Assembly: GCA_041665085.1 (NCBI GenBank) | Contig: JBAYJO010000003.1 | Span: 2,131 to 66,130 of the forward strand | Length of the DNA stretch: 64,000 nucleotides | Source: Patescibacteria group bacterium | GTDB lineage: Bacteria; Patescibacteriota; UBA1384; JBAYJO01 | Direction: 5' to 3' | Part shown: positions 157-52,848 of the stretch, in pieces | Layout: every line of letters starts with the position of its first letter | Position numbering within the stretch: position 1 is the stretch's first letter | Program-made: the position numbers and the translations under genes | Notes under the pieces: generated by a model | What the model was told of the DNA's origin: nothing | What the model saw: the letters and a program-made list of their open reading frames with translations, nothing else | Database searches by the model: none

Positions 157-1749
157 TTAGGTGATTAATCTGCTGATCAATTCTTTAGCTTTTTCTATTG
201 AAATATGGGCAGTATTGGCGATTTCTTCAATTGAGGCTGTTTTTATATTTTCAACAGATCCGAAATGTTGGAGAAGAGATATTCTTTTTTTAGGTCCGAT
301 ACCTGATATTTCTTCAAGAGATGATTTCGGTTTTCGAAGCGACTTTTGAAAAGTAACAGCAAATCTATGAGCTTCATTTCTAATTCTTTGGAGTAAAAAC
401 AGGGTAGGCGAGAGAGTGGGAAGTATAATTGGTTCTTTTGAATTCGGAACAAAAATAAATTCAATTTTTTTTGCCATGGCGGCGATTGGAATATTTAAAT
501 CATATTTTTTAAGAATTGCTTTGCCGGCTGATAACTGACCCTTACCGCCATCAAGTAAAATAAGATCGGGGAGTGGCCAGAATTCTGATTTAGAATGGAT
601 TCCAGATCCGGATTGTCCTTCGGACTTCCGGTCTGGAATGACATTAGGATGGAGACTTCGCTTTGAGTCTGGAATGACAATGATAGATTGCTTTGTCGTT
701 CGCCTGTTGGCGGATTCTTTGCGATGACAAAAAGAGGAACTCGCAATGACAGAGGAGGATCTTGAAAATCGTCGATCAAGAATCTCGCGCATCGAGGCAA
801 CATCATTTTGAATATTTACTTTTTTAATTTTAAACTTTCGATATTCTGATTTATCTGATTCGCCTTCTGTAAAAACTATCATAGATCCGACAATATTTGT
901 GCTTCCTAAATTTGAAATATCAAAACATTCTATTCGGTGTGGAATAGATTTTAAATTTAATTCTTTTTTTAACTGATCAAGAGCTGACATATTTAATCTT
1001 TTTTCAGATTCGTTATTATCGCTTGAAAAGATAAAAGTGTCTGGTTGGTATTTTATTCTTTGAAGTATTGAAATTTGATCTCTTAAAATTTTTGCCAGTT
1101 CAAATTCTTCATTTTTTGAAGCAAGATTCATCTCACGCGATAAGTTGCGAATTGTTTTTTGAGATTTTGACGAGAGAAAATCAATTGCTCTTGCAACTTG
1201 TTTCGCATAAACTTCTTTTGATACTTTGCCTATGCAAGCATCTGTACATTTACCGATTAAATATCCTGAATATGGGCGATGATTGTGTTTAATGTGGCAG
1301 GTTCTGATGCCAAAAACTTGTTGCAAGACTCTGATTGTCTGGCGCATTGAAGAAGCGTTAGTATATGGACCAAAGTATTTTGCTCCATCACTTAATATTT
1401 TTCTGGCAATATGAATTCGAGGAAAATCTTCGTTGGTTAATTTAATGAGTGGGTAATTTTTATCATCTCTCATTTTAATGTTGTAATAGGGGTGATAGAG
1501 TTTGATTAAATTATTTTCAAGAATTAATGCTTCATTTGCTGACTTTGTTTTTATGAATTCGATATTATCGATTTGCTCTAGCATTGAAATATTTTTAAGC
1601 TCCGTTGGTTTTTGAAAATGGGATTTTATTCTATTTTTAATTGAAATTGCTTTTCCAACATAAATAATACGGTCGTTGGAATTTTTAAAAAGATAGACGC
1701 CGGTTTCATTTGGAAGCGATTTAATTATTTTTTTTATTTTATCTTTCAT
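157..1749 (-). CDS. uvrC: Excinuclease ABC subunit C (UvrC). The likely start is the internal Met at 'MKDKIKKIIKSLPNETGVYLF…', so the ORF-track start at 1794 is probably too far upstream. It carries a ~55-aa in-frame repeat-derived insertion.
   Basis: GIY-YIG N-terminus (…GVYLFKN…IIYVGKA…NRIKSHF). UvrBC-interaction region, RNase H-like 'DISNLGS…FWPLPDLILLDGGKGQ', and a C-terminal HhH. Nucleotides 600-765 are GC-rich and palindromic, and differ from the rest of the gene. Confidence 0.85.
   Translation of the reverse strand: MKDKIKKIIKSLPNETGVYLFKNSNDRIIYVGKAISIKNRIKSHFQKPTELKNISMLEQIDNIEFIKTKSANEALILENNLIKLYHPYYNIKMRDDKNYPLIKLTNEDFPRIHIARKILSDGAKYFGPYTNASSMRQTIRVLQQVFGIRTCHIKHNHRPYSGYLIGKCTDACIGKVSKEVYAKQVARAIDFLSSKSQKTIRNLSREMNLASKNEEFELAKILRDQISILQRIKYQPDTFIFSSDNNESEKRLNMSALDQLKKELNLKSIPHRIECFDISNLGSTNIVGSMIVFTEGESDKSEYRKFKIKKVNIQNDVASMREILDRRFSRSSSVIASSSFCHRKESANRRTTKQSIIVIPDSKRSLHPNVIPDRKSEGQSGSGIHSKSEFWPLPDLILLDGGKGQLSAGKAILKKYDLNIPIAAMAKKIEFIFVPNSKEPIILPTLSPTLFLLQRIRNEAHRFAVTFQKSLRKPKSSLEEISGIGPKKRISLLQHFGSVENIKTASIEEIANTAHISIEKAKELISRLIT
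600..765. repeat. Palindromic repeat element (GTCTGGAATGACA / TCGCAATGACA modules) inserted in-frame in uvrC.
   Basis: Its reverse complement carries 'tgtcattgcgag', 'aagcaatctatcat' and 'tgtcattccagac(c)gga' modules shared with the repeats at 18811-18880, 52849-53000 and 53451-53651. Local GC is well above the gene average. Confidence 0.7.
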
Positions 1750-1915
1750 CAAACGATATAATAACACATTTATTAATATTTGAATATTCCACATCTATTA
1801 AAATAGTTATATGTGAACTATATTATAGATAAGTAAATATTTATTTAAGGAAGGGACAAAATATTCGGGCCTTGGTTTTAGTTAAGTTTTGCTAATTCTA
1901 TTTTTGGTTATATTT

Positions 1916-4900
1916 ATGATAAAACGAATAAAGCTTATTATTTTTTCCGGGCTGTTTGCGATATTATCACTTCAATTGATAATTTTTCAGGGTCTTTTTA
2001 AATACAATGCGAACACTAATGACAAGCTTTCTGTTACGCCGACTGAAATATCCTCTATTTTATTAGCTCCCGATCAAATTAAAGTAAAATGGTCATTTAA
2101 TTCATCTGACGAATTGGGTTTTAAGGTCGAAAGATCTTTATCATATGAGGATGATTTTGTTGAAATTGCAAGAACCGGTCCTAATATTACTTCATATATT
2201 GACAGCGGGATTGATCCAGAAAAAATGTATTATTATCGGGTTAAGGCATATAATCTCGCAGGAGATACTGACTATTCGATCCTTACTTCTCCACCAAAAG
2301 AAGTTAATTATGATTTTATGGCTGGTATTGGAGACATGAAAGAAAGCACCCATATTCATGGTAGCAGTTATTTTAATAGTAACGATGTAGTTGGTCCTTC
2401 GGTAGATGATCAAGTGGCTAATGGTTGGCGTAGACATACTAATATGGCTACTATTCCTAAAATTAATTCTATATTTAGAATCGATCAAGAGGGTGGGTTT
2501 AATAGTCAGTATATGGGTGTTTTGGGAACTAAAAGTAATGATGCCGATATTTCAATAAGCAATGAAATAAATGTTTCGAATATAGATTTACAACAAGGAG
2601 ATATTTTAAGATTTGAATTTGATTATGTTAAGTTTAGCGGGTATGAAGATTTGCCTAATGGAAGCAGCGTGCAGTATGGAATTAGACTCTATGGTCAGGC
2701 AGGCGAAAGTACTAATCCAGCTTTAAATTATGTAAATATGTTTTTTATTCAAAAGGATAATATTGATCCTACGAGTCAAGGACCGTTATATGTTGAAGGA
2801 ACAGTTGTTAGAGACCTTAATATTGAAGGAATATCATATCCAAATTATCCAATTTTACATCTTTATAGTTCTTTTAGGATGTTTGTTGACGGCGATATCG
2901 GTACAGCACAACCAGGAGTTAATTTCAGTGGAGCACATATTTTTATTAAAAAGAAAGATCAATCAAGCTTTCAAAAAATTATTGTTCCAGCGCCTCATAA
3001 TCGTAATGTGCAAACAGGTTTAGTATTTTATAGTCCTGCAAGGTATAATATTTACGATGTGGCATCAAATTTTGATTGGGTTTCAACAGATTATTTGTTT
3101 GATGATGAGGTTTCTAAATTGAAATATTATAATCCAAATGTTAAAGTATATTTTTATATGGCAGCAGCGGCTATGGCAGATTATCGTGATGAAAATTTCA
3201 ATGACTGGACAAATCCTGGTACTGAATTTCAATGGGCGCTTGATAATCATCCGGAGTGGTTTTATAGTCGTTATCGTGATCCTGTTAATAAAATTGGCGA
3301 TATGATTCCTTTGGTCAACGGTGAAGATCCAAGAAAAAAAGAGTATAAAAGATATTTTAATGAGGAGGATTATGCGGAGTACTTAGCCACAGGTGATGAA
3401 TCAAAGCAAATTCCATATTTTTTTGATATTCAGTACCCGCAAATATATTCAGTCAACCCATCTATTCCTTCCTACCAAGATTATTATTATAATTCAGTTG
3501 TAAAAGCACAGAATTTTTATAATTTTGATGGTGTTTTTGTTGATACGCTAGGAGCAACAGGGTCATGGAGTGTAGCAAATCCCTCTCAAGATCTGCAGAA
3601 GTTAGTTTTGCCGGATCAAATTCAAAAATTTCAAGAAAATGTTTTCCCGAGATTAAGAGAAGCAGGCATTACAACCATTCAAAATAATTGTTCTATGCAT
3701 TATTCTACATATGGATACGGTGGTATAACTGCCCTTAACCCATATTGGAAAAAAGATAGTTTATCGGTGGAAAATTTATTACTTGAAAATACACCAACAA
3801 TTGATTTGACTACTTTTGTTAACAATTATTATGGCGGTAGTTCACCAATAGCACTATTTGATGATAATAACCCCGATATGACGGCAGATTTCTTTTTTCA
3901 GGAACGGGCTTTTTTTGGGGGTTATGATCGAAATTATTATAGTACTTCAGAATGGTTAAATGCTTTAACTGATATGGATTTAGCGAGTGAATGGAACGCA
4001 AATTTGTCAGATGATAAAAAGAAAAAAATCTTTCAGTTGGTTCATGGAGTAGATAATGCCGAAAATCCAGCTTTAGGAATTAATGGATGGGCACAGTTTG
4101 GGCTGACTTCTTATTTATTGGGATCAAGCGATTATTCGTGGTTAGGAATTGATAAGGTTGGATCTTATGAACAAATATTTTCATTTTATTCTTTAACCTC
4201 GAAGCTTGGTGATCCGGTTTCGCGTCGTGTGGATTTAAAATCTGATACTGATCATTCGCTTCAATCAAGAAGATTTTCAGGTGGTCTTGTGGTTGTAAAT
4301 GGGGATAGTAATATAGCTCAAAAATATATTCTTAGCAAAGAGATGTTGGATGAAACAAACAGTGTTATTAGCGGTGAAATTACATTGCTTCCTCATACTG
4401 GTCGTATTTTTTATGATTTTCCTATTACAACTGCAAATTATAATCAAAATTATCAATCAAAAAACGGTTTTTTTAATAAAGAAGTAAAAGTAAATTTGTC
4501 GACTTCTGAAACAGTTCATGATAATTTGGTAACATATTATCGTATTGATGATGATGTTCAGAAAATATATAGTGGAGAAATTGTGATTCCGGAAGGCAGC
4601 CACACTCTTTATTATTGGTCGGAAGATACAGGTCCTGATTCGTCATCAGTTGAAGAAGAAAAATCGATTGATTTTAAAATTGACCTGACGGCGCCTCCTG
4701 TAGCTGTTCCTAAAAGTCCATTGTATACATTTAAAAATATTTTAACCTTAAAATTAGATAAAAATATAGATATTACTCAAATGTTTGTCAATGATTCTGA
4801 AATTATCTATAACTCTTCCGGACAATATTGGCATATGGATCAGCAATTAAATGTTGGTGAGACAAAAACTTTAATTATTAAAACAATGGATTTGGCAGGA

Positions 4901-5110
4901 AACAATTCAAATTCTGCGTTAGTAGTTACTCGAAGAAGAATAGGTGATGCAGTATCGAATTTACAAGCAGGTATCGACAAGGTTAATATTTATGATTTTA
5001 GTGCTCTTCTATCTTTTTGGGGAACAAATAATTATTCCACTGATTTTAATGGGGATGGTACAACAGATATTTACGATTTTTCAGATATGTTGTTAAATTG
5101 GACGAATTAA
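1916..5110 (+). CDS. Large surface protein: N-terminal TM anchor, FN3 domain, large uncharacterised (enzyme-like) domain, Ig-like domain and a C-terminal dockerin.
   Basis: 1073-aa ORF with an ATG at 1916 after the TTG-initiated track start. C-terminal 'DFNGDGTTDIYDFSDMLLNW' matches the dockerin Ca-binding loop plus helix. FN3-like 'VKWSFNSSDELGFKVERS…YYYRVKAYN'. Confidence 0.7.
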   Translation: MIKRIKLIIFSGLFAILSLQLIIFQGLFKYNANTNDKLSVTPTEISSILLAPDQIKVKWSFNSSDELGFKVERSLSYEDDFVEIARTGPNITSYIDSGIDPEKMYYYRVKAYNLAGDTDYSILTSPPKEVNYDFMAGIGDMKESTHIHGSSYFNSNDVVGPSVDDQVANGWRRHTNMATIPKINSIFRIDQEGGFNSQYMGVLGTKSNDADISISNEINVSNIDLQQGDILRFEFDYVKFSGYEDLPNGSSVQYGIRLYGQAGESTNPALNYVNMFFIQKDNIDPTSQGPLYVEGTVVRDLNIEGISYPNYPILHLYSSFRMFVDGDIGTAQPGVNFSGAHIFIKKKDQSSFQKIIVPAPHNRNVQTGLVFYSPARYNIYDVASNFDWVSTDYLFDDEVSKLKYYNPNVKVYFYMAAAAMADYRDENFNDWTNPGTEFQWALDNHPEWFYSRYRDPVNKIGDMIPLVNGEDPRKKEYKRYFNEEDYAEYLATGDESKQIPYFFDIQYPQIYSVNPSIPSYQDYYYNSVVKAQNFYNFDGVFVDTLGATGSWSVANPSQDLQKLVLPDQIQKFQENVFPRLREAGITTIQNNCSMHYSTYGYGGITALNPYWKKDSLSVENLLLENTPTIDLTTFVNNYYGGSSPIALFDDNNPDMTADFFFQERAFFGGYDRNYYSTSEWLNALTDMDLASEWNANLSDDKKKKIFQLVHGVDNAENPALGINGWAQFGLTSYLLGSSDYSWLGIDKVGSYEQIFSFYSLTSKLGDPVSRRVDLKSDTDHSLQSRRFSGGLVVVNGDSNIAQKYILSKEMLDETNSVISGEITLLPHTGRIFYDFPITTANYNQNYQSKNGFFNKEVKVNLSTSETVHDNLVTYYRIDDDVQKIYSGEIVIPEGSHTLYYWSEDTGPDSSSVEEEKSIDFKIDLTAPPVAVPKSPLYTFKNILTLKLDKNIDITQMFVNDSEIIYNSSGQYWHMDQQLNVGETKTLIIKTMDLAGNNSNSALVVTRRRIGDAVSNLQAGIDKVNIYDFSALLSFWGTNNYSTDFNGDGTTDIYDFSDMLLNWTN

Positions 5111-5147
5111 TAGTGTATAATAAAAATATATTTATTAGTGGGGAAAA

Positions 5148-6602
5148 ATGAAAAAAATTGTTAGTTTAGTTATTGGAATAATATTTTTTAGCTCATTTAA
5201 TATAGCTTATGCAGCTAATGTAAGTTTATCAATTTCCGGAGCAGGAAGTCATGATAATGGAACTGAATTTGATGTTTCAATAAATGTTGGAGCAAATGGT
5301 AATAATGTTTGTGCTGTTAGAGCAAATCTTAATTATCCATCAAATTTATTAGATGTAGTAAGCGTTGTAAAAGCAGGTCCATCAAGTGCATACTTAGAAA
5401 TTGACAACGATACAACTACAGCGGGAGTGGTCAAATATCTTGGTGGTTTTATGAATTGTACTACTAGTGATAAGCCGTTGTATATTGTAAAATTTAGAGC
5501 AAAAGCTGCTGGCAGTGGGCAATTTTCATTTGGTGAGACCCAAGTAGTGGGAGGATCAGGTGAAAATACTGTTGCTTTAGGTTTTTCTAAATCAACATCA
5601 GATATAAATATTAATCAGGTCAATAGTAGTGTTAGTTCAAGCGCTGATAGTAGCGGCGACGGTAGTGCTAGTAGTAGTTCTTCTGCATCAGGAGATAGTA
5701 GCAGCTCGTCATCTGATAGTAGCTCCAGCAGTACTGATTCGAGTAATACTTCAGGCAGCTCGGCTTCAACTGATAGTAATTCTAGAGCGAGAAATTCAAA
5801 TACCAACAATCAAAATTCTAATACTACTCCAGTGATTGTAGCTGTTAATCCATATTTAAAAACAGTTGTTTTTTCTAGTGATGCCTCTTTTGATACGGAG
5901 AACAAAAAAGTCAAAGGATTTACTTTTTCTGGTACGGCGGAACCAGATAGTAAAGTATATATTACAATAATGAGCTTTCCGATTTTAGCTGAAGCGCAAA
6001 CAAATTCAAGCGGCGTTTGGTCCTTTAGTATTACGAATTGGCTTGAAGATGGCGATCACACTTTGACTGCTTATTCTGAAAAAAACGGAATAAAATCAGC
6101 GGAAATTAAAGTTGGTTTTACTTTTCAAAGTGCCGATAAAAATAGTTTAAAAATAATTTCTGCTTCCGTAGTAAATAAAAATAGTAATTCAAACAATAAT
6201 TATAATACAAATACAAATTCTACCGCTAGCGCGGAAACAAATGCTACTAAAAGTAATTTTTGGACTATTTTAATGTATATCACTCTTGCAATCGTTGCGG
6301 TGATTGTTGTTTTTCTTGTTTTAATTATTAGGCGAAATAAAAATAATAATTCTATAAATCCAACTGCCGATATAAATAATAATCCAGTAATTAATCCAAA
6401 TCCGGTAAATAATGTTGAATCTATGCAACCCGAAAATCAGATTTCTGAAGAAAAAGTTTCAACTGAAGTGTATTCAGCTCCTTCAGTAATTAGCGAGCCT
6501 GTTGAAACTGGCAATACTAATCAAACAAATCAACAAAGTGAAGAGCCAGCAATAATTACTCCGTCTCAAGCTGAAGATGTGACCAAAGATACTAAAAATT
6601 AA
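5148..6602 (+). CDS. Membrane-anchored cohesin-domain protein (scaffoldin-like): signal peptide, cohesin, Ser-rich linker, Ig-like domain, C-terminal TM helix and cytoplasmic tail.
   Basis: Cohesin-like N-terminal module ('FDVSINVGANGNNVCAVRANLNYPSNLLDVVSV…LYIVKFRAKAAGSGQFSF'). Poly-Ser/Asp linker and TM 'FWTILMYITLAIVAVIVVFLVLII' near the C-terminus. RBS GGGGAAAAATG. Confidence 0.65.
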   Translation: MKKIVSLVIGIIFFSSFNIAYAANVSLSISGAGSHDNGTEFDVSINVGANGNNVCAVRANLNYPSNLLDVVSVVKAGPSSAYLEIDNDTTTAGVVKYLGGFMNCTTSDKPLYIVKFRAKAAGSGQFSFGETQVVGGSGENTVALGFSKSTSDININQVNSSVSSSADSSGDGSASSSSSASGDSSSSSSDSSSSSTDSSNTSGSSASTDSNSRARNSNTNNQNSNTTPVIVAVNPYLKTVVFSSDASFDTENKKVKGFTFSGTAEPDSKVYITIMSFPILAEAQTNSSGVWSFSITNWLEDGDHTLTAYSEKNGIKSAEIKVGFTFQSADKNSLKIISASVVNKNSNSNNNYNTNTNSTASAETNATKSNFWTILMYITLAIVAVIVVFLVLIIRRNKNNNSINPTADINNNPVINPNPVNNVESMQPENQISEEKVSTEVYSAPSVISEPVETGNTNQTNQQSEEPAIITPSQAEDVTKDTKN

Positions 6603-9405
6603 GAACTTCTCTTAAATATTGTCCGGTAAATGATTTTTCAACGCCTGCGATATTTTCTGGCGTGCCGGTAGCAACAATTTTACCGCCCTTGTCTCCTCCT
6701 TCGGGTCCAAGATCAATTATAAAATCCGCTGATTTTATAACATCTAAATTGTGTTCAATTACTAAAATTGAATTTCCTGCGTCAACTAAACGATTTAAAA
6801 CTAAAAGTAGTTTATTAATATCATCAAAATGAAGTCCTGTTGTTGGCTCGTCAAGGATGTAAAAAGTGTTTCCTGTTGCGGGCTTGGCAAGCTCCGAGGC
6901 AAGTTTGATTCTTTGAGCCTCACCTCCGGAAAGAGTTGTTGCAGATTGTCCTAGCTTGATATATCCAAGCCCCACATCCATTAATGTTTGTAATTTATCG
7001 GCTATTTTTTTAATTGGTGAGAAAAATTTTAAAGCTTCTTCAACAGTCATATTTAAAACATCAGAAATATTTTTTCCTTTATATTTTACTTCTAGTGTTT
7101 CGTGGTTATATCTTGAGCCGTTGCATACTTCACATGGAACATAAACATCCGGCAGGAAATGCATTTCAATTTTGATCAAACCGTCGCCATTACAATTTTC
7201 GCATCTTCCTCCTGTAACATTAAATGAAAATCTTCCCGGTCTATAACCCCTTTCGCGCGCTTCTTTTGTCATGGAAAAAATTTCACGAATAATGTCAAAA
7301 GTTTTTGTGTAGGTGGCAGGATTTGAACGCGGAGTTCGTCCAATAGGTGATTGGTCGATAATTAGTATTTTGTCAATTTTTTCTGCACCAATGATATCTT
7401 TATGTTCGCCCGGTTTTTCAAGATGGCGCATGATTTTGAATGCAAGGCCTTTATATAATATGTCATTGATTAAAGTTGATTTTCCTGACCCGGAAACTCC
7501 TGTAACGCAAGTAAATACGCCAAGCGGAATAAATGAATTAATGTTTTTTAAATTGTGTTCGCGCGCTCCTCTTATTTCTATAAAATCTTTTGGCGCTCGT
7601 CTTTTTTTAGGAACAATAATTTTTTTCTCGCCTCTTAAATATTGACCGGTAAATGATTCCGGACTTTCTAAAATTTCATTAAGTGAGCCTGAAGCAACTA
7701 CATTTCCACCGTGTTCGCCTGCTCCCGGTCCAATATCGACAATGTAATCAGCGGTTCTAATTGTTTCTTCGTCATGCTCAACAACAATAACTGTGTTTCC
7801 CAGTTCGCGCAAATATTTTAATGTATTGATCAATTTTAAATTGTCTCTTTGATGTAAACCGATTGACGGTTCGTCTAAAATATATAACACGCCCATAAGT
7901 TTACTGCCTAGTTGAGAAGCAAGTCTGATTCTTTGAGCTTCACCGCCGGCAAGTGTCAGTCCCATTCTGTCTAAAGATAAATAGTCTAAACCAACATTCA
8001 TTAAAAATTCTAATCTGTTCATAATTTCTTTTAGGACTTGACCAATTATGGTTTTTTCTCGATCGGTTAATGGTAAATTATGAAAAAAATCATATGCATC
8101 TTTAACTGATTTTGAAGTAAGTTCAGAAATATTTATTCCGTTTACTTTTATTGATAATGATTCTTTTTTTAGTCTTGCGCCTTGGCAGTCCGGACAATTA
8201 TTGACTGAAAAATATTTTTCAATTTCTAATCTTACGGCGTCTGATTCAGTTTGTTTGTATCTATCTTCAAGCATTCTGACAATGCCTTTCCAATTCAGAT
8301 TAAAGACATGCGAACCTGTTGCTGTGCGATGATGTATTTTAATTTTTTCATTTGATCCGTTTAATATTATGTCGAACTGTTCTTTTTTCAAATCTTTAAT
8401 TCTAACATTTGTTGGAATTTGATGATGTTCGCAAACTGCTTTTAATATTGCAGTTAAATATCCATTTTTATTAAAACTCCAAGGTACTATTCCTCCTTGA
8501 TCAATGGTTTTATTGTGATCCGGCATGATTAAATCAGCGTCAATTTCTCTTTTTACTCCAAGCCCTTGGCAAGTAGGGCAGGCACCAAAAGGGGAATTGA
8601 AGGAAAAGAGTCGAGGTGAAATTTCAGAATAAGAAAACCCGCAGGTTGGACAGGAAAGTTCTTCAGAAAAAGTAAAATCTTCGCCTGTTTCAAGGTTGTG
8701 AATTATGACAAGATGATCTGACAAATGAAGAGCTTGTTCAATTGATTCAGCCAATATTTTTCTATTTTCTAAATTTACAGTTGTTTCTGTAATTACGGCG
8801 TCAATATTTTGAGTTTTATATCTTCCAAGCTCAATTTTTTGATTTAAATCAACAAATTTACCGTTAATTCTAACCCTTAAATATCCATCTTGATATAGGT
8901 CGTTTAAGAGTTGGTGATATTCACCTTTTCTTCCGATAACAATTGGAGATAGAATTATTATTTTCTTATTATTTAATAGATCGGCAACGAAATCTATAAT
9001 TTGATCAATGGTTTGTTTTACAATCGGAGTATTGTCGTTTGGGCAAAACGGTTTTCCAACTCTGGCGTAAAAAACTCTTAAATAATCATATATTTCTGTA
9101 ATGGTTCCGACAGTTGAGCGGGGGTTATGGCTGGCTGATTTTTGGTCAATTGAAATTGCAGGGGAAAGTCCATCGATTAAATCTACATCCGGTTTGTCCA
9201 TTGTTCCTAGAAATTGCCTAGCATAAGAGGAGAGAGATTCTATATATCTTCTTTGTCCTTCGGCGTAAATGGTATCAAAGGCAAGCGATGATTTGCCCGA
9301 ACCGGATATACCGGTAATAACAACAAGCTTGTTGCGTGGTATATCAAGATTAATATTTTTTAAATTGTGGGTTTTTGCACCGCGAATTATAATTTTATTT
9401 TCCAT
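6592..9405 (-). CDS. uvrA: Excinuclease ABC subunit A (UvrA).
   Basis: 937 aa, two ABC ATPase modules ([14 protein letters not shown]…, [11 protein letters not shown]…), zinc-finger Cys pairs and LSGGE signature motifs. Confidence 0.95.
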
Positions 9406-9406
9406 T

Positions 9407-11383
9407 TTAAAACTTAAATTTTCTTAATTCTTTGATTTCATCTCTGATTCTTGCTGCTGTTTCAAATTCCAAATGTTTGGCAGCTTCTCTCATGGCAATT
9501 GTTTTCTGTTTAATAATTTCCGGTACTTGCTCTAGATCTAAAACTAAATCTTCTGCTTTTTCTGCAATTTCTTCGTTTTTTTCATAAATTGAATATATTT
9601 CTTTTTTAATTGTTTGAGGTGTGATGTTGTGATCGGTATTATATTTTTGTTGGACTTTTCTTCTTTTTTCCGTGACTGAAATTGCTTTTTTCATTGAATC
9701 TGTGATTGTATCTCCATATAATATCACTCTTCCGGCTGAATTTCTAGCTGCTCGGCCAATTGTTTGAATAAGTGATCTTTCTGATCTTAAAAATCCTTCT
9801 TTATCTGCATCTAGAATTGCAACAAGTGAAACTTCGGGCAAATCTAGCCCTTCTCTTAAAAGATTAATTCCGACCAAGACATCAAATTCGCCTTTTCTAA
9901 GTCCGGCTAAGATTTCAAGTCTTTCGAGTGTATCTACTTCGGAGTGAATATATCTTGTTTTTACTCCTGCTTCGGTTAAAAATTCAGCAATATCTTCAGA
10001 CAAGGATTTTGTAAGTGTGGTTACTAAAATTCTTTCTTTTTTAACCTGTCTTAATCTAATTTCATGCAAGATATCATCGATTTGATTTTTTGTTGGACGA
10101 ACTTCAATTTCAGGATCAACAAGACCGGTTGGACGAATGACTTGTTCCACAATTTGAGTTGAGTTTTCCTCTTCAAAATGACTTGGTGTGGCTGATGTAA
10201 AAATTGCTTGAGAAACTTTTTTTTCAAATTCGTCAAATTTTAAAGGTCTATTATCAAGGGCTGATGGAAGTCTAAATCCATGTTCAACTAAAACTTCTTT
10301 TCTGGCGCGATCACCATTATGCATTCCGTTGATTTGAGGTATGGTAATGTGTGATTCATCGATTATGGTTAAAAAATCTGCAGGCCCGCCTTCAGTCGAG
10401 GCAGGAAAATAATCAAGTAAAGTTGCAGGAGGAGATCCGGCTGGACGATCTGACAAAATTCTTGAATAATTTTCAATACCATTACAATAACCAATATTTT
10501 CAAGCATTTCCATATCAAATTTTGTGCGCTGCTCCAGTCTTTGAGCTTCGAGCAATTTATTATGTGATTTTAAATCTTTAAGCCTTGATTCTAATTCAGA
10601 TTTTATTTCATTTAATGCTTTTTTGAGTTTTTGCGGTGAGATTAAAAAATGTTTTGCTGGGAAAATTGTAATATATCCAATATTTTCTGATTGTCGTCTT
10701 GAAATCGGATCAACTTCAAAAATATTAATTATTTTATTTCCCTGAAGTTCTACGCGAACAATTACATTTGCGTTAACCGGCATAATTTCAATTACTTCTC
10801 CTTTAGCTTTGAATGTTCCGCGTGTCAAATTTACATCGTTTCTCACAAAAAGCATTTCTATCAATTTTTTAATAATTTCATCTCGTGAAATTTTTTGAGC
10901 TGTGTAAATATTTAAAACCGTTTGTTTATATTCAATAGGGGATCCAAGACCATAAATGCAAGAAACGGAGGCAATTATAATTACGTCTTTGCGAGAAAGT
11001 AATGCTGAAGTGGCAGCATGTCGAAGTCTTTCAATTTCGTCATTTATTGTTGCTTCTTTCTCAATATAAGTGTCGGTTGTGGGTAAATATGCTTCCGGCT
11101 GATAGTAATCATAGTATGAAACAAAATATTCTACGGCATTTTTTGGAAAAAATTCGCGATATTCAGCGCAAAGTTGAGCCGCTAGAGTTTTATTTGGAGC
11201 AATTACAAGTGTTGGCTTTTGAATTTGGGCAATAATATTTGCAGCAGTGAATGTTTTTCCTGATCCGGTTACACCTAAAAGAGTCTGGTATTTTTGTTTT
11301 TCTTTGAGCCCTTTAACCAGCTTTTTTATTGCTTGTATTTGATCGCCTTTTGGCAAATATTTTTGTGATAATTCAAATTTCAT
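9407..11383 (-). CDS. uvrB: Excinuclease ABC subunit B (UvrB).
   Basis: 658 aa, helicase motifs ([12 protein letters not shown]), UvrB beta-hairpin region and C-terminal UVR domain '[13 protein letters not shown]'. Start is 2 nt downstream of the uvrA stop. Confidence 0.95.
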
Positions 11384-11507: not shown

Positions 11508-12440
11508 ATGTATATGTCGAAAAGAAAAACATTTAATGTGGCTGTTTATTCAATTGGGTTATTATTTCTTTTGGGGGCGATTTCATTTTCCTCATATAAT
11601 TTATTCTACAAAGCAGATGAACTTCCTTCTGCAAATTTGGCTCTAACTACTTCAAGCGCGGGTGGACAGGTTTCCAATAATGCTAATTTTAATTTATATG
11701 TCAATTTTATCCCCAGTGGAAATACAATTTGTGCTATTAGTTTCACAATAAATTATCCAACTGATACTATTCAATTAGCAGGTGAACCGGTTCTTGGAGA
11801 AGTATACGATTTGGCAGTAGAGGCAGATACTAGCGTCCCCGGTATTATTAATTACGCCCTTGGAGTAAAAGGATGCAGCACTAGCAGCGCTCAACTTTTA
11901 ACGGTTCCGTTAAAAGCGATTTCGCTTGGAACAGCAAATATTACAATATCAAGCTCCGAAGCGGTTACTGATATTGATGGTCAAGTTGTGCCGTTTTCCA
12001 ACGTGCCGACGGTTATTAATATTATTCCTTTGGCTAAGCCGGTAGTAACAACATCCAAAACTTTTACTTACAAGTCTACTTTGTCATTAGCCGGTACTAA
12101 ATCAGCTGAATTAACCAAGATAGTGATCGGTGGAGTTACAACAGATGTTTCCGCTATTGCAACAACTTGGGCTGTATCTGTTAATTTAACGATTGGAAAT
12201 AATAATTTATCAGTTGTTGGAAAGGATAACTTAAATAATTTAAGCGACGCGGCAAGTTATAGTATTGTCAGAAGAAAAATGGCTGATGCGGATAATGATG
12301 GTTTTGTTAATATTAATGATTTTGGATCATTGATGTTAAATTGGAAAAAAACAGGAGCTGACAATGTTGCTGATTTCAACGAAGATTTAACAGTTGATAT
12401 TAAAGATTTTGGTAATTTGATGCTAAATTGGAATAAATAG
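11508..12440 (+). CDS. Cohesin-like plus dockerin protein (adaptor-type scaffoldin component) with an N-terminal TM or signal anchor.
   Basis: Cohesin-like 'NFNLYVNFIPSGNTICAISFTINYPTDTIQLAG…LLTVPLKAISLGTANITIS'. C-terminal duplicated dockerin segments 'DADNDGFVNINDFGSLMLNW' and 'DFNEDLTVDIKDFGNLMLNW'. Strong RBS AAGGAGG. Confidence 0.7.
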   Translation: MYMSKRKTFNVAVYSIGLLFLLGAISFSSYNLFYKADELPSANLALTTSSAGGQVSNNANFNLYVNFIPSGNTICAISFTINYPTDTIQLAGEPVLGEVYDLAVEADTSVPGIINYALGVKGCSTSSAQLLTVPLKAISLGTANITISSSEAVTDIDGQVVPFSNVPTVINIIPLAKPVVTTSKTFTYKSTLSLAGTKSAELTKIVIGGVTTDVSAIATTWAVSVNLTIGNNNLSVVGKDNLNNLSDAASYSIVRRKMADADNDGFVNINDFGSLMLNWKKTGADNVADFNEDLTVDIKDFGNLMLNWNK

Positions 12441-12442
12441 TT

Positions 12443-13366
12443 TTATTTAGACCATCTATCTTCGATTCTAGCGATAAAATATGGTAGATCGTTATCAATA
12501 TGCATTCGGCCTAAAATAAATAAATCATTTTTATTATGATCAATTTCTTTATTGACCGAGGACGCGGATTGATATCCAAATTCAGAAACTTTTGCGATCG
12601 CTCGCGCTCCCATGCTGCCGCCGGGATAAGCATAATTTTTAATTTTGATTTCTAGCTTTTCTTCTAGGATTTTTTTAGATTCAGAAAGTTCGTAATTAAT
12701 TTCGTCATCTGTGGCTGCATTCATGTCGCGGTGAGTCATGTTGTGCGATCCGATTATCATGCCGTATTTTGCCATTTCTAGGGCATTGTTCCAGCTCATA
12801 TAATCGCTGCCTGTACCGACTGATCCTTTGTCTAACCACGAGGGAACCATAAAAAATGTTGCATTGTAATGATATTGTTTTAAAATAGGAAAAGCGTTTT
12901 GATATTGCCCGATTGTCCCATCGTCAAAAGTAATAACAATTGATTTGTCCGTTGGTTTATTTTTCCCTGTTGTTAAATAATTTACTAAAGCGTCAAGACT
13001 AATTACGCGATAATTATTTAAAGCTAGCCATCGCATTTGAAGTTCGAATTTTTCAGGGGAGACATAGTAGGATGTCTCTTCGCCTTCTTTTGGGGTGCCG
13101 ATTTTATGATAAAGAAGAATCGGGACTCTAATGGACCCTTTTTCTATTGGTTTGACTGGTAGTGTGCTCAAATATTCTTGGTCTTTTTTTTCCTCATCTG
13201 TAAATTCAATTGTTTTTTCTGTAATATCTGGTGCTTGCCAAGAAGTATCTTCATTATTTATTATATTTTGATCTGATTTTATTCGAGCATTTCTGATAAA
13301 TCCAAAAAAACAAATTCCGATGAATATTATTATAATAATTAAAAAAACGCTTTTTGTTGCTTTCAT
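12443..13366 (-). CDS. Polysaccharide deacetylase (NodB-homology, CE4) with an N-terminal TM anchor.
   Basis: 'SIVITFDDGTIGQYQNAFPILKQYHYNATFFMV' NodB motif and His-containing motifs (HNMTHRD). Confidence 0.8.
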   Translation of the reverse strand: MKATKSVFLIIIIIFIGICFFGFIRNARIKSDQNIINNEDTSWQAPDITEKTIEFTDEEKKDQEYLSTLPVKPIEKGSIRVPILLYHKIGTPKEGEETSYYVSPEKFELQMRWLALNNYRVISLDALVNYLTTGKNKPTDKSIVITFDDGTIGQYQNAFPILKQYHYNATFFMVPSWLDKGSVGTGSDYMSWNNALEMAKYGMIIGSHNMTHRDMNAATDDEINYELSESKKILEEKLEIKIKNYAYPGGSMGARAIAKVSEFGYQSASSVNKEIDHNKNDLFILGRMHIDNDLPYFIARIEDRWSK

Positions 13367-13878: not shown

Positions 13879-15093
13879 CTAGAATTTGAGGGTTGGGTGG
13901 GTGATTGTGATAATCTCCGGTTTAGGAGAGCTTTTCCTGTTCTTAGGAGGTCGTATCTTGTCGTTCGGAGAAGTTCCAATTGCATCCCGATCCAGTATCT
14001 GATGCTGTCTGATCTTAGTATCCTGTATTGAGACTAAGCGTGCTCCTTTCTTGGAAACTGTGATATTTCGGAAGTTGTTGGTTGCGTATTCTCTGTAGGA
14101 CATGCCATTATACATGGATCCAAGATCAAGTGTGGGATGAGGTACTGCTAGATCATAACACATTGAACCTCGAGAATGGTTCTCTTTGTTGGGCGGAACA
14201 TGGCATTGACAAAGTTCATAGCTTGGGCAAACCAAAGCGCAGTGCCTTTCGGCTGCTAAAGCGCTTGTTTTGGGTCGCCATTGACAGAGTCCGTTTCCAA
14301 TATGCCATGCACCTTGGTTGGAGTCGTAGCAGGACAATCCTGCATTATGGCAAGCAAGCGATAGATCTTCCGATAAGTCTTCGCTTATACCGTCTCTTTT
14401 GTCATAAGTGAAGCTTTTGATCATACCAAATTGGTAGACCAACCTCATGATCCAGATATCCACACAATAGAACGGTATTTGACGGAAGAATTCCCACTCC
14501 CTATCGTTGCCTTTCCATTGGATATCTTGAAGCCAGAGCAAGATTAGTTGAGCGATCTTGTGCTTCATCCCAACAGGTTTATCACGATGCTTGCCAGCGA
14601 GCGTCATTACCTTGATCAATCGGTCTCTGTTTTCCATCGGACTCTGATCAAGATTGAGATTCCGAAGAATCAAAATCCTAGGATCACCATCGTATTTCTC
14701 AAGGAGCTTAAGAGTGTTTCGCCACCAGTTGATTCTCTTTGGATCAGTGTGAGCAAAGGGAATGATTGGGGTTAGAATTCTCCGCAGCTCGTCTTGATAA
14801 CTCTCTGCCAGTCCAGTTGCAGGATTGAGTACTTCAGGGTGATCCAGACATACTGTGCTGCATTGGCTGATAGCTTTTTCAGCTGTTTTGCCAGATCTGT
14901 TGTTCCAGCCGACAAAGAAGAGATACATGGCATGCATTAGGCTGCCATATTCTATTTCTTTGGGTTGATGGCGAATTTCCGGGGGGTGCATATTGGCAAA
15001 ACCATAAGTACGGTTTTCCCATGCATCTGCCCAGCTTTTGCATACAACTGCTGCAGTATCGCAGTCAAACTCGTACTTTTTGATTCTGGCCAC
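13879..15093 (-). CDS. Hypothetical Cys-rich protein of the GC-rich island. There is a possible HhH-like 'FYCVDIWIMRLVYQFGMI' segment. Function unknown.
   Basis: Long ORF at ~48% GC. Likely GTG start at 15093, which lies 9 nt after GAAAGGAGG; the track gives TTG at 15129. Antisense ORFs over it are composition artefacts. Confidence 0.55.
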   Translation of the reverse strand: MARIKKYEFDCDTAAVVCKSWADAWENRTYGFANMHPPEIRHQPKEIEYGSLMHAMYLFFVGWNNRSGKTAEKAISQCSTVCLDHPEVLNPATGLAESYQDELRRILTPIIPFAHTDPKRINWWRNTLKLLEKYDGDPRILILRNLNLDQSPMENRDRLIKVMTLAGKHRDKPVGMKHKIAQLILLWLQDIQWKGNDREWEFFRQIPFYCVDIWIMRLVYQFGMIKSFTYDKRDGISEDLSEDLSLACHNAGLSCYDSNQGAWHIGNGLCQWRPKTSALAAERHCALVCPSYELCQCHVPPNKENHSRGSMCYDLAVPHPTLDLGSMYNGMSYREYATNNFRNITVSKKGARLVSIQDTKIRQHQILDRDAIGTSPNDKIRPPKNRKSSPKPEIITITHPTLKF

Positions 15094-15213
15094 TTGTGGC
15101 ACCCTCCTTTCAGATTGATCAGAATTCAAAAGAGAGCGTTCCTTGCTCCCTCATTTTCAATATAGATTATTTGTAAAAATAAGGCAAATGCAAAGGGGCA
15201 GCTATATTTCAAG

Positions 15214-16518
15214 CTACCCCGAGTTAGTCTGGCCTGTGCCAGCCAATACTGCTGGTTGTGATTCTTCAGCAGTCAGTTCGTCGATAGCGTCAAGTAGACG
15301 CCGAGTTTGTCGAGTCAGTCGTTTGACTTTCTTAGGATCAAGACTGATCAGGTGTCGCGCGAGTTTGGCTAGATGTGGTAGACCAATTCCCTCGAGACTA
15401 TTGATTACCATTTGGACTTGGCCAAGACATGAGTCAAGATGATCTAGTACTTTACCAAGTCTCTTACGGTTTTCAGGGTCGGTCATAGGTGAATCAGCTG
15501 TTGATAATAGGTGTTGTTCGCAGAGCCACTTCATTCCTTCGAATGTTAGTATAATGCCCTGCAAGCCATCGCCTGTCAAGCTCTTGATAGCATTGCGAAA
15601 TGCCTTTTCAGTATCAGCTTGGACAGAATAATCCATTGCTGCAGCTAAGTCCATTTGGACTAGACTGGCGATTCTTTCAGTGATGCGTCTGCGGTACTTT
15701 GGAATCGACAATCGTGGCCCTTGGCTTATGACATAACGCAATTCAGTTTCTAGCGTTTTTTCGCCGAACTTATGATCTGCCAATCGAGCCATCTCTATGG
15801 CAAAACCATACTTCATCTTGCTGTTTTCAACAGCTTTGCGCAAACGATCCGGCAAGCCGCAGAACTTGATCATGCGACTGACTTTGTTAGGGGAGCAACC
15901 AAGTTCTTTGGCCAATTTGGCATACGAGAATTGCGCATCTCTCTTGCGGTACATCTTAAGCATTGATTCGACAAAGTATGCCTCCTCATGTGCCGGTACT
16001 GTACCGTGGATGTTTTCGGAGACTTGAATGCATCTGGCGTAGAAAGGATCAGGATTGACATAGATGTCGCACCACCTGATTGCGCTTTTTGGAAACTGTA
16101 TCTCAAAGCAGTGGCATTCAGATGATTCTTCTCCATCAACCTTGCAACGCGAGCATCCTTTTTCACGGAGTTCGATCATTGCTCGAATTCTACATTCTCC
16201 TGCGATCAAGACATAGTATTTGCCTTTTCGCGCGTAGGATTTGTAGTCATCAAACTCGAGGGTTGCTCCATGAAGGTCTGCCGAGAAAAGCAAATACTCG
16301 ATGAACTTTGCTTTGCTGGTAAAAACAGCCAGCTTAATGTTGGTCAAAAGTCCCATTCGGCCGATATTCTCAGCCAAGTCAGTGATCTTGAGGGGATCAA
16401 AGGTGTGCCTTTCCTGTGGTAAGATAATCACATCTTCGATCGGGATTTCTCGACTTCGCATGAGCGATTCGAACTGTAGTCTCTCAACAACATTGTTTTC
16501 TGGTCCAGACTTTGTCAT
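15214..16518 (-). CDS. ParB/Srx-like nuclease-domain protein with an HTH domain.
   Basis: 'YVLIAGECRIRAM' resembles the ParB 'LIAGERRxRA' box. HTH 'SYAKLAKELGCSPNKVSRMIKF'. ATG at 16518 is preceded by AAAGGGGGTGA. GC ~50%. Confidence 0.65.
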   Translation of the reverse strand: MTKSGPENNVVERLQFESLMRSREIPIEDVIILPQERHTFDPLKITDLAENIGRMGLLTNIKLAVFTSKAKFIEYLLFSADLHGATLEFDDYKSYARKGKYYVLIAGECRIRAMIELREKGCSRCKVDGEESSECHCFEIQFPKSAIRWCDIYVNPDPFYARCIQVSENIHGTVPAHEEAYFVESMLKMYRKRDAQFSYAKLAKELGCSPNKVSRMIKFCGLPDRLRKAVENSKMKYGFAIEMARLADHKFGEKTLETELRYVISQGPRLSIPKYRRRITERIASLVQMDLAAAMDYSVQADTEKAFRNAIKSLTGDGLQGIILTFEGMKWLCEQHLLSTADSPMTDPENRKRLGKVLDHLDSCLGQVQMVINSLEGIGLPHLAKLARHLISLDPKKVKRLTRQTRRLLDAIDELTAEESQPAVLAGTGQTNSG

Positions 16519-16609
16519 TTCATCACCCCCTTTTGTCCAGACTAATTTAATCATTAAAATAAATACGAGACTTGTCAAATGGTACATGTTAATAAATATG
16601 TGGAAAAGT

Positions 16610-16648
16610 ATATATTAAAAAGGTTAAGGCAGGCGCAAGCGCCTGCCT
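16610..16648 (-). terminator. Rho-independent terminator downstream of purA (minus strand).
   Basis: Perfect hairpin 'aggcaggcgc aa gcgcctgcct', followed on the minus strand by TTAACCTTTTTAATATA. Confidence 0.7.
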
Positions 16649-16680
16649 AATAAGTCAATATTCAGTTTTGGGTCAATCCG

Positions 16681-17952: not shown

Positions 17953-18087
17953 AGTAGAATTATCCTCTCTTGTGAAGTAGTGTAAGGCAATCGGTTGCTT
18001 ATCTTCACAACCATAAGAATAGTACAATTTAATAAATAAAAAATCAATCTATTTTAAAAAATATTTTAGAACTGTGTCAATTATTGT

Positions 18088-50125: not shown

Positions 50126-50160
50126 GATTTTTTCACATTTTACTAAATTAAGGAGGGTAT

Positions 50161-51225: not shown

Positions 51226-51283
51226 AGATAGCTAAAAACTTAAAACTGAAAGATTAAAATCACAACTTAAAATTTATATTAAA

Positions 51284-51646
51284 ATGATTAAAACAAATAC
51301 TGATTTAAAATCACGTTCATACAAATTCTCATTAGATATTATTAGTTTTATTCAAAATATATCAAATTCTAAAATAAGTTTAGTTTTGATAAATCAGCTA
51401 TTAAGGTCAGCTACTTCAATAGGTGCTAATATTTTTGAAGCAAAATCATCTTCATCAAAAAGAGATTTTATTAAGTTTTTTGAAATTTCATTAAAATCTG
51501 CTAATGAAACAGAATATTGGTTAAATTTATTCAAAGATAGTAGGATCAGTAGCGTCAAAGAGGTTGATATTTTACTTGATGAATTAGTTGAATTAAGCAA
51601 AATGATTGCCGCAAGTTTATTAACAATGAAAAACAAAAGGAATTAA
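51284..51646 (+). CDS. Four-helix-bundle protein ('23S rRNA intervening-sequence protein' family, homologous to the DGR Avd protein).
   Basis: 120 aa, 'SYKFSLDIISFIQNI…LINQLLRSATSIGANIFEAKSSSSKRDFIKFFEISLKSANETEYWL' matches the family pattern. Flanked by AT-rich (T)TAAAACT-type repeats. Confidence 0.65.
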   Translation: MIKTNTDLKSRSYKFSLDIISFIQNISNSKISLVLINQLLRSATSIGANIFEAKSSSSKRDFIKFFEISLKSANETEYWLNLFKDSRISSVKEVDILLDELVELSKMIAASLLTMKNKRN

Positions 51647-51649
51647 AAA

Positions 51650-51687
51650 GGATTTAAGTTTTAAACTGTGGATTTAAGTTTTAAACT
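51650..51687. repeat. Tandem direct repeat 2 x 'ggatttaagttttaaact', followed by 'ttaaacttta aactttaaat'.
   Basis: Read directly. Sits between the four-helix-bundle gene and pilC. Confidence 0.6.
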
Positions 51688-51708
51688 TTAAACTTTAAAT
51701 TAAAAACA

Positions 51709-52779: not shown

Positions 52780-52848
52780 ATAGTATTGAGTATTTAGTAT
52801 TGGGTATTGAGTATAAAAAATAATTTGTAAAGCTTAAAGTCAAACTTT

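Follow-up and report, generated by a model that had tools for sequence, protein, structure and literature searches.

A dockerin-bearing putative glycoside hydrolase and a membrane-anchored single-cohesin protein encoded as neighbors in a Patescibacteria genome

The anchoring scaffoldins of cellulolytic Firmicutes (the SdbA/OlpB/Orf2p type of C. thermocellum and ScaE of R. flavefaciens) hold a cohesin at the cell for dockerin-bearing proteins, and the known cellulosome anchors are attached through SLH modules or by sortase and an LPXTG motif (PMC12484212). The locus described here resembles these systems in its cell-bound cohesin, in an adaptor that combines a cohesin with a dockerin, and in its carbohydrate-active cargo. 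Cohesin and dockerin modules are known to be widespread outside cellulosomes, as Peer et al. reportedly described in FEMS Microbiol Lett in 2009. In Clostridium perfringens both modules are parts of the enzymes, which they join to one another. The surface equipment of the ultra-small, largely uncultured Patescibacteria is poorly understood, type IV pili being the main device with experimental support. In a cultured Saccharibacterium, one protein with a dockerin domain but no known partner proved essential (PMC10633639), and our literature searches turned up no account of cohesin-dockerin gene pairs in CPR bacteria.

The 64-kb stretch of DNA analyzed here (the window) holds two cohesins and two dockerins only, carried by the proteins P1, P2 and P3. 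An earlier note, made from the sequence alone, had placed the P1 and P2 genes at the positions where we find them and had suggested a CPR-type genome; an identical P3 protein is deposited as hypothetical protein WCW17_01585 of a Patescibacteria group bacterium MAG, which confirms that suggestion. P3 lies outside the region considered in the note. The window also contains a type IV pilus cluster. The features are as follows.

1889..5110, + strand: P1, secreted multidomain dockerin-bearing protein, ORF of 1073 aa from TTG 1889
1916..1999, + strand: P1 N-terminal segment, signal or anchor, with MIKRIK and a hydrophobic stretch; AF2 helix aa 2-37
2039..2278, + strand: P1 fibronectin type III domain (aa 51-130); Pfam fn3 E 0.0052 (P1 alone), pLDDT 67-86
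3344..4285, + strand: P1 GHL15 glycoside-hydrolase-like (beta/alpha)-barrel (aa 486-799); Pfam PF14885
4715..4927, + strand: P1 Ig-like beta-sandwich (aa ~943-1013), directly before the dockerin, ending in a conserved RRR/RRK motif
4928..5107, + strand: P1 dockerin (aa 1014-1073); first loop degenerate, its helix NIYDFSALLSFW; second loop canonical, its helix DFNGDGTTDIYDFSDMLLNW
5111..5147, + strand: P1-P2 spacer of 37 bp, with GGGG(A) as ribosome-binding site, 6-9 nt ahead of the P2 start codon ATG
5148..6602, + strand: P2, membrane-anchored single-cohesin protein, 484 aa
5217..5615, + strand: P2 cohesin module (aa 24-156), conserved Cys55/Cys104 pair
5625..5822, + strand: P2 Ser-rich disordered stalk (aa 160-225), from sequence; pLDDT <50 for aa 161-223
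5853..6173, + strand: P2 Ig-like domain (aa 236-342); Pfam Big_13 E 8e-6, pLDDT ~90, all-beta
6243..6314, + strand: P2 transmembrane helix (aa ~366-389), from hydropathy; AF2 helix aa 371-399
6315..6599, + strand: P2 low-complexity cytoplasmic tail, ~95 aa, RRNK directly after the transmembrane helix
11508..12440, + strand: P3, secreted cohesin-Ig-dockerin adaptor, 310 aa
11628..12035, + strand: P3 cohesin
about 12045..12257, + strand: P3 Ig domain
12258..12437, + strand: P3 dockerin, two near-canonical repeats

The earlier note had read P2 as a cohesin-like module on a Ser-rich stalk with a C-terminal transmembrane (TM) anchor, and profile, AF2 model and hydropathy bear this out. The Pfam Cohesin model (PF00963) aligns to the module over model positions 2-124 of 139 with an E-value of 7.8e-5, at 23.3 bits against a cutoff of 24.1. 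In an AF2 model built with 12 homologues, aa 24-156 are all-beta (pLDDT about 76-93), and by Foldseek the model shares the nine-stranded flattened beta-sandwich (jelly-roll) fold of solved cohesins: the top 12 PDB matches are all cohesins (E 8.8e-10 to 7.6e-6), with target TM-scores of 0.70-0.81 for single-module entries. The best or near-best of these matches are the Archaeoglobus fulgidus cohesin 2xdh and the entries 2w1n, 2vo8, 2jh2 and 2o4e, cohesins of C. perfringens glycoside-hydrolase toxin complexes. Judged by the matches of its family profile and by its predicted fold, the P2 module is a cohesin.

P2 begins with a signal peptide (AYA-AN) and also contains an Ig-like domain, overlooked in the earlier note, that is kept in P2-like proteins. 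A signal peptide and, further on, a TM helix with a basic stop-transfer are common to P2 and 14 other cohesin proteins, and no LPXTG-like motif precedes the TM helix in P2 or in these relatives. We considered whether the C-terminal TM helix and basic tail of P2 might be a sorting signal of the sortase type and rejected this, since there is no LPXTG-like motif and the tail runs to ~95 residues. Pfam searches returned no SLH match and no lectin domain in P2, and no CBM match in P2 or P3.

P1 is 1064 aa long if translated from ATG 1916, the start used in the earlier note, with the N-terminus MIKRIK followed by the hydrophobic stretch; P0025, P0016, P0137 and P0027 are full-length homologues. Its central domain, which the note had left to structure-based fold searches, matches the family GHL15 (PF14885) with an E-value of 5.6e-14 and 53.1 bits against a cutoff of 27, as do 6 of the 7 P1-family members, and has a predicted (beta/alpha)-type secondary-structure pattern. 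The best PDB matches of the P1 AF2 model are GH168 endo-1,3-fucanases (E ~1e-6), and the P1-family profile weakly matches 8ya6_A (E 0.013). Likeness to the GHL15/GH168 endo-alpha-1,3-L-fucanases thus consists of the GHL15 match, the (beta/alpha) pattern and the GH168 fold matches, of which the last have a TM-score of only ~0.42 and are tentative because the model is poor (7 sequences, mean pLDDT 51). The family GHL15 is itself hypothetical and is not among the known cellulase families; we know of no member whose activity has been tested. The family profile also matches the Fn3 structures of titin and C. thermocellum, with E-values down to 7e-17, and the P1 Ig domain, for which AF2 predicts strands, is homologous to that of the Ig-dockerin cassette of P3 (phmmer 6.6e-11). 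Tentatively, P1 may be described as a secreted, putative GHL15-type, GH168-like (beta/alpha)-barrel glycoside hydrolase with FN3 and beta-sandwich accessory domains.

The segment DFNGDGTTDIYDFSDMLLNW, quoted in the earlier note as the dockerin-type duplicated calcium-binding end of P1, lies at 5042-5101, and a second copy of its helix, NIYDFSALLSFW, lies upstream at 4985-5020, so that the C-terminal segment is indeed duplicated. A type I dockerin has two tandem segments of ~22 residues, each made up of a 12-residue EF-hand-like calcium loop (D1, N/D3, D5, D/N9, D12) and a helix, and the two loop-helix motifs pack antiparallel. In P1 the canonical calcium-binding loop (D-x-N-x-D-G-x-x-D-x-x-D) occurs in the second segment only (DFNGDGTTDIYD); in the first loop (GDAVSNLQAGIDKVNIYDF) 5 residues are inserted and N3 and D5 are missing, with the helix after it kept. 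In six P1 homologues the same loop reads (A/G)D(A/T/S/I)N(N/G/A)D-(G/N)x(I/V)(N/D)xxD(F/L), for example ADANND-GAINIKDF in P0025. The duplication and one loop of the proposed segment thus hold, but the first loop is degenerate and unlike that of all six homologues, which suggests that the P1 dockerin may be weakened or single-sided. The P1 tail falls below the Pfam Dockerin_1 (PF00404) cutoff (E 0.036, 14.7 bits against 22.9) and is matched by our dockerin-family HMM, A2, at 6.3e-18. AF2 predicts the dockerin helices at aa 1034-1042 and 1061-1071 with a pLDDT of only 40-58 across the dockerin region; given so poor a model, the dockerin fold of P1 itself is putative.

Word-index homology searches with the P2 cohesin module, P3 and a composite profile returned only the queries themselves and four dockerin proteins, a scan of the genome collection with P2 alone found no relatives, and phmmer searches of PDB sequences made directly with P1, P2 and P3 yielded nothing meaningful. 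The cohesin and dockerin families were gathered by exhaustive representative search with P3, whose cohesin is 29% identical to that of P2 (E 1e-14) and whose dockerin segments are DADNDGFVNIND and DFNEDLTVDIKD; P3 scores 3.7e-40 and 6.8e-26 under the family HMMs A1 and A2, and Pfam gives its cohesin module 19 bits and its dockerin tail 12.9. At E<=0.01, PF00963 matches 21 of 29 related cohesins (best 3.4e-11) and PF00404 matches 55 of 60 related dockerins (best 3.9e-11); 6 of the 7 P1-family members also match PF00404, and several relatives pass its cutoff (P0008, P0013 and P0011 with 25.4, 27.4 and 26.4 bits). Against the PDB, the cohesin family profile finds the C. cellulolyticum cohesin 2vn5/1g1k over its full length (4.4e-5) and the A. 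fulgidus cohesin 2xdh (6e-5). The top matches of the dockerin family profile are the dockerins 2y3n_B (6e-10), 4fl4_A, 2mte, 1daq and 2jnk, with EF-hand and calmodulin matches ranking after them. The dockerin ends within 8 residues of the C-terminus in 105 of 113 domains; ahead of it there is always a conserved Ig domain with an RRK motif, and this Ig-dockerin cassette is conserved in ~85 representative proteins. By sequence, the C-terminal cassette of P1 belongs to this family. The HMM searches that the earlier note had called for therefore succeed with family members and profiles, but not with P1 and P2 alone, which stay below the Pfam gathering cutoffs; and where the note had named missing HMM matches and unrelated folds as evidence against it, we find a cohesin by both profile and fold and a significant dockerin family match.

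P1 and P2 have an operon-like arrangement, and the spacer between them contains no terminator. Gene order was counted in loci fetched with dockerin-only patterns (n=34 distinct). In 15 of the 34, a cohesin gene lies immediately downstream of the dockerin gene on the same strand, separated from it by no more than about 65 bp or overlapping it slightly, and this downstream gene usually encodes a TM-anchored, single-cohesin protein; Patescibacteria, Uhrbacteria and Adlerbacteria genomes are among those with the pair. Every cohesin match in the fetched loci adjoins a dockerin gene or shares an uninterrupted gene cluster with one. Adjacency is not universal: the P2-like protein P0036 has no recognized dockerin gene beside it, and of nine loci with large enzymes that stand nearest to the P3 cassette, most have no cohesin beside them. 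Functional coupling of dockerin and cohesin genes is supported by this conserved order. The cargo varies across loci and the anchor stays, as at locus L004, where a P2-like anchor accompanies a 1099-aa protein with a GH5-like WELVNEP motif. Relatives carry beta-helix, CBM5/12, CBM4/9 and DUF5060 domains.

The term 'cellulosome-like' used in the earlier note fits the cohesin-dockerin tether and little else. A cellulosome has a multi-cohesin primary scaffoldin, whereas P2 and P3 have one cohesin each; CBM3 is absent and no cellulases were recognized; and instead of an SLH or sortase (LPXTG) attachment, P2 and its 14 relatives have a simple TM helix at the C-terminus, ended by a basic stop-transfer and followed in P2 by a cytoplasmic tail. 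The organism is a Patescibacterium and not a cellulolytic Firmicute. P1-P2 is thus probably a non-cellulosomal cohesin-dockerin surface-tethering module and not a cellulosome. In this it resembles the C. perfringens and A. fulgidus proteins, in which the modules likewise connect glycoside hydrolases that are not cellulolytic, or other proteins, outside cellulosomes, and a C. perfringens dockerin is also among the top matches of the dockerin family profile (2jnk/2ozn, the dockerin of a glycoside-hydrolase toxin complex). In contrast to C. perfringens, a dedicated membrane anchor is here encoded directly after its presumptive cargo, and the dockerin always follows the Ig domain and RRK motif.

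We consider it probable that P1 and P2 are transcribed together as a cargo protein and its anchor, and that they employ the cohesin-dockerin interaction in a setting other than a cellulosome. P2 would be exported, its signal peptide cut, and the protein retained in the cytoplasmic membrane by its single C-terminal TM helix, with the positive residues inside; its N-terminal cohesin would be held off the cell by the Ig domain and the disordered Ser-rich stalk of ~65 residues. The C-terminal dockerin of P1 would plug into a cohesin in a calcium-dependent manner, so that the enzyme would stay at the cell surface and not diffuse away. P3, encoded 5 kb away, could be an adaptor or extender that docks on P2 through its dockerin and leaves its cohesin open to P1, or it could form chains. 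We infer the mutual binding of P1, P2 and P3, the matching of cohesins with dockerins, the tolerance of the degenerate first loop in P1 and the substrate of P1. The parts list of a surface enzyme-docking complex proposed in the earlier note is supported by the identity of the modules and by conserved gene order.

The modules could also be genuine and wired hierarchically, the well-formed P3 dockerin binding P2 and the atypical P1 dockerin binding the P3 cohesin or one encoded elsewhere in the genome, with the adjacency of P1 and P2 reflecting co-regulation rather than contact. The union in P3 of a cohesin with a dockerin of two near-canonical repeats, the degenerate first loop of P1, and multi-gene clusters with adaptors at L008, L031 and L037 are in keeping with such wiring, which we nevertheless regard as unlikely: in most of the recurrent pairs a single dockerin gene accompanies a single TM-cohesin gene and the fetched sequence contains no adaptor, so that pairing between neighbors is the simplest reading.

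Less probable still is that the stalked cohesin is mainly an adhesin for a host-cell or polymer ligand and not a receptor for the cell's own dockerin proteins, with the dockerins serving another role such as calcium-dependent stabilization or the binding of glycans or host surfaces. Patescibacteria are largely epibionts, the long stalk of P2 would suit outward reach, and host-glycan targeting has been proposed for the essential Saccharibacterium dockerin protein (PMC10633639). This reading, however, leaves unexplained the frequent placement of a dockerin gene directly upstream of the cohesin gene; P2 has no lectin or CBM domain that we could find, and the window already encodes type IV pili, the known attachment device of these bacteria. 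The earlier note had offered both host attachment and polymer degradation as functions. The former is speculation for the P1-P2 system, and the latter is favored because cargo domains here and in relatives are carbohydrate-active.

A chance resemblance, with a generic Ig or beta-sandwich domain at the N-terminus of P2 and a generic EF-hand-like motif at the end of P1, both unrelated to cohesin-dockerin biology, is highly improbable: the sub-threshold Pfam scores of P1 and P2 on their own and the EF-hand and calmodulin matches behind the dockerins would allow it, but solved cohesins and dockerins rank first with the family profiles, the leading fold matches of P2 are cohesins throughout, the dockerin is strictly C-terminal and the gene pair is conserved, so that family-level, fold-level and gene-order evidence, though not P1 and P2 alone, settles the resemblance as more than chance.

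Taken together, these results extend cohesin-dockerin biology to a new mode of anchoring, by a TM helix, and to a very large lineage that is new to it. Small anchors of this type, each with one cohesin, could together with their compact dockerins supply new orthogonal pairs for designer protein assemblies. For the Patescibacteria, the recurrent bicistronic cargo-anchor pair offers a concrete model of how enzymes are retained at the surface. It is conceivable, though we would not yet expect it, that the lineage as a whole uses a modular plug-and-socket display in which TM-anchored single-cohesin receptors replace SLH and sortase anchoring for an Ig- and dockerin-tagged secretome, cargo genes being swapped in before a conserved anchor gene and the displayed proteins degrading or remodeling host envelopes or exopolymers; the tagged secretome would then comprise glycoside hydrolases, CBM-bearing proteins, beta-helix enzymes and proteases. 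The recurrence of the gene pair in related genomes suggests a way in which these cells keep the enzymes they secrete fixed to the surface.

The P1, P2 and P3 genes lie in a low-GC window (~0.33) in which uvrC, uvrA and uvrB all occupy the minus strand between 157 and 11383, and the plus-strand P1-P2 pair splits uvrC from uvrA. The features are as follows.

157-1794, minus strand: uvrC
1889-5110, plus strand: P1, a secreted GHL15 protein with a C-terminal dockerin of atypical sequence (1073 aa, TTG start)
1916, plus strand: alternative ATG start of P1, used in the earlier note (MIKRIK, then a hydrophobic segment)
5148-6602, plus strand: P2, a membrane-anchored protein with a single cohesin (484 aa; ectodomain aa 23-345)
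6592-11383, minus strand: uvrA/uvrB
11508-12440, plus strand: P3, a cohesin-Ig-dockerin adaptor (310 aa), directly past uvrB
12443-13366, minus strand: polysaccharide deacetylase gene (Pfam E 1.2e-26), convergent with P3
13879-18027: region of raised GC
47519-59191: type IV pilus cluster

P1 and P2 are 37 bp apart; a G-rich ribosome-binding site lies in this spacer, which shows no hairpin resembling a terminator. A six-frame motif scan of the window confined dockerin-like segments to the C-termini of P1 and P3. P3, which was missing from the earlier note, is a secreted, adaptor-type third component whose single chain joins a cohesin (aa 41-176) to an Ig domain and a dockerin of two repeats (together aa 180-310); NCBI has a protein identical to it, annotated as hypothetical, from a MAG of a 'Patescibacteria group bacterium'. 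The deacetylase gene also adjoins P3 in a JGI contig (L001). The region at 13879-18027 has a GC content of 0.45-0.475, against ~0.33 elsewhere in the window, and may be a foreign island; it holds a 416-aa ORF without a Pfam match, a 457-aa ORF with a weak ParB-HTH match, and adenylosuccinate synthetase. The pilus cluster encodes a PilB-like ATPase with an MshEN domain, a PilT-like ATPase, PilC, a prepilin peptidase and at least four N-methyl pilins.

When the whole P2 protein was compared with Pfam and NCBIfam, an Ig domain alone was recognized (Big_13, E 8e-6). In isolation its N-terminal module aligned with Pfam Cohesin over nearly the full length (E 7.8e-5), with a score of 23.3 bits that just missed the cutoff of 24.1 bits. 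The N-terminal module of P3 matched the same model with E 0.0017, and the two modules are homologous to one another (29% identity, E 1e-14). An exhaustive HMMER search with P3 as the query yielded 377 representative proteins at E<=1e-3, from which 27 further cohesin modules were taken; the HMM search proposed in the earlier note then gave Pfam Cohesin matches for 21 of the 29 modules at E<=0.01 (best 3.4e-11). Against solved structures, the family profile matched the Clostridium cellulolyticum cohesin over its whole length (2vn5/1g1k, 4.4e-5) and the Archaeoglobus fulgidus cohesin (2xdh, 6e-5). The AlphaFold2 model of full-length P2, built with 12 full-length homologues as input, consists of an all-beta module (aa 24-156, pLDDT ~76-93), a disordered linker (aa 161-223), a second beta-sandwich (aa 236-342, pLDDT ~90) and a helix (aa 371-399). 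All 12 top Foldseek matches of this model in the PDB are cohesins, with target-normalized TM-scores up to 0.81; they include C. perfringens 2w1n (8.8e-10), 2vo8 and 2jh2, C. acetobutylicum CohA2 (6kgc/6kgd/6kge/6kgf), C. cellulolyticum 1g1k and A. fulgidus 2xdh.

P2-like proteins have a common architecture that runs from a signal peptide through a cohesin with an invariant cysteine pair, a linker and an Ig domain to a TM helix, which is followed by basic residues and a tail that varies. The pair, Cys55 and Cys104 in P2 (5310-5312 and 5457-5459), is invariant in 13 P2-like proteins, is present in most but not all of the 29 aligned modules, and probably forms a disulfide. No LPXTG-like motif was found ahead of the TM helix in the P2-like proteins; together with the shared TM architecture, this identifies P2 as a bitopic membrane anchor and rules it out as a sortase substrate. 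The earlier description of P2 as a cohesin with a C-terminal TM anchor was therefore correct.

The dockerin that the earlier note placed at the P1 C-terminus is borne out, in an atypical form. On its own the P1 tail scores only E 0.036 on Pfam Dockerin_1, but the P3-query search recovered the large family to which it belongs, C-terminal cassettes in which an Ig-like domain and an RRK motif precede two repeats. The P1 cassette spans aa 940-1073, and the family has 113 dockerin domains in 109 proteins, 105 of the 113 ending within 8 residues of the C-terminus. In the dockerin half of the HMM search, Dockerin_1 was matched by 55/60 aligned members (best 3.9e-11), and the best PDB matches of the family profile are the solved dockerins 2y3n_B (6e-10), 4fl4_A, 2mte, 1daq and 2jnk, followed by calmodulins. 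Among the seven P1-family proteins of full length, P1 alone fails to match Dockerin_1. In the alignment the second P1 repeat is canonical (DFNGDGTTDIYDFSDMLLNW), while the first retains its helix (IYDFSALLSFW) but has a degenerate calcium loop, with a 5-residue insertion and loss of the ligands at positions 3 and 5; it is because of this disrupted loop that P1 misses the Pfam model. A poor AlphaFold2 model of P1 (seven sequences only, mean pLDDT 51) places helices where a dockerin would have them and leaves the fold unconfirmed. Judged by its sequence, the P1 C-terminus is an atypical dockerin.

Upstream of the dockerin, P1 residues 486-799 match GHL15, a hypothetical glycoside-hydrolase family (Pfam E 5.6e-14), as do 6/7 relatives, and residues 51-130 form a fibronectin type III domain that is weak from P1 alone and clear by family profile. 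Acidic residues conserved in the putative enzyme include the invariant D480 and D552 and the Glu of a QE(R/W)AFF motif. The best PDB fold matches of the low-confidence P1 model are GH168 endo-1,3-fucanases (E ~1e-6, TM ~0.42), in agreement with a weak profile match of the family to 8ya6_A (E 0.013); these tentatively suggest a GH168-like (beta/alpha) barrel. Other proteins with the same cassette carry beta-helix, CBM5/12, CBM4/9, DUF5060 and Propeptide_C25 domains, and a GH5-like WELVNEP motif occurs in one of them; carbohydrate-active proteins therefore make up most of the cargo class.

GTDB species genomes and JGI metagenome contigs were scanned with Ig+dockerin cassette patterns only, and every ORF of the fetched loci was then searched with cohesin and dockerin HMMs. 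In 15 of 34 distinct loci a cohesin gene lies immediately downstream of the dockerin gene, on the same strand, with a gap of at most ~65 bp or a short overlap. Each cohesin match in the fetched loci adjoins a dockerin gene or shares an uninterrupted gene cluster with one; given how seldom such genomes carry cohesin genes, chance adjacency cannot account for the frequency of 15 in 34. The pair occurs in a Patescibacteria MAG with the same anchor architecture as P2, in Candidatus Uhrbacteria, and in Candidatus Adlerbacteria, where two TM-cohesin genes accompany a cohesin-dockerin adaptor. It is also found, dockerin gene then TM-cohesin gene, at 7509-9952 of a locus from a MAG labelled Gammaproteobacteria (binchicken_co6_188), which may reflect misbinning or lateral spread. 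No cohesin was found within 8 kb of the dockerin loci of Chloroflexota, Planctomycetota, Chitinophaga and one Saccharibacteria MAG. Of the downstream cohesin proteins that are complete, nearly all carry a signal peptide, a C-terminal TM helix and a basic stop-transfer sequence. The adjacency is not obligatory: a P2-like gene on another contig adjoins a type IV pilus cluster similar to that of the window, with no recognized dockerin gene found beside it, and among the large-enzyme loci closest to the P3 cassette, most are without a neighboring cohesin. In two metagenome contigs (L031, 2764-9942; L037, 5503-9352) four cohesin genes follow one another in a compact cluster, with one and two cohesin+dockerin adaptors, respectively, and additional dockerin genes upstream, a more elaborate form of the P1/P2-type system.

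Given the observed module identities, topology, operon-like arrangement and conserved gene pair, the best-supported reading, which we consider probable, is that P1, P2 and P3 form a cargo-anchor tether. P2 would be held in the membrane and present its cohesin on a stalk, P1 would be secreted and then retained through cohesin-dockerin binding, and P3 could bridge or extend the assembly. We infer the binding itself, the choice of partners and the P1 substrate; the half-degenerate P1 dockerin may bind in one orientation only. Hierarchical wiring through P3, whose single chain bears both modules, seems to us unlikely. Less likely again is that the cohesin is an adhesin and the dockerins serve something else. 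Chance resemblance to cohesin and dockerin is highly improbable; family profiles, P2 fold and gene order agree that the pair claimed for this CPR-type genome is real.

The modules, and their existence outside cellulosomes, are already established, in the C. perfringens toxin complexes and the A. fulgidus cohesin, both among the best matches of the modules described here. The term cellulosome-like fits in that the P1/P2 system would work as an anchoring scaffoldin does; it does not in that each protein has a single cohesin, CBM3 and a recognized cellulase are both absent, and attachment is by a TM helix rather than by the SLH modules or sortase described in a 2025 review (PMC12484212). A dockerin-domain protein essential in a Saccharibacterium is mentioned in passing (PMC10633639), and our search of the Patescibacteria literature found no account of cohesin partners or of a dockerin-cohesin gene pair. 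The earlier interpretation was thus essentially right, and what is new is the TM-helix anchor, the bicistronic cargo-anchor layout and the Patescibacteria lineage. The recurrent pair provides a directly testable model of how a major uncultured lineage may display enzymes at the cell surface.
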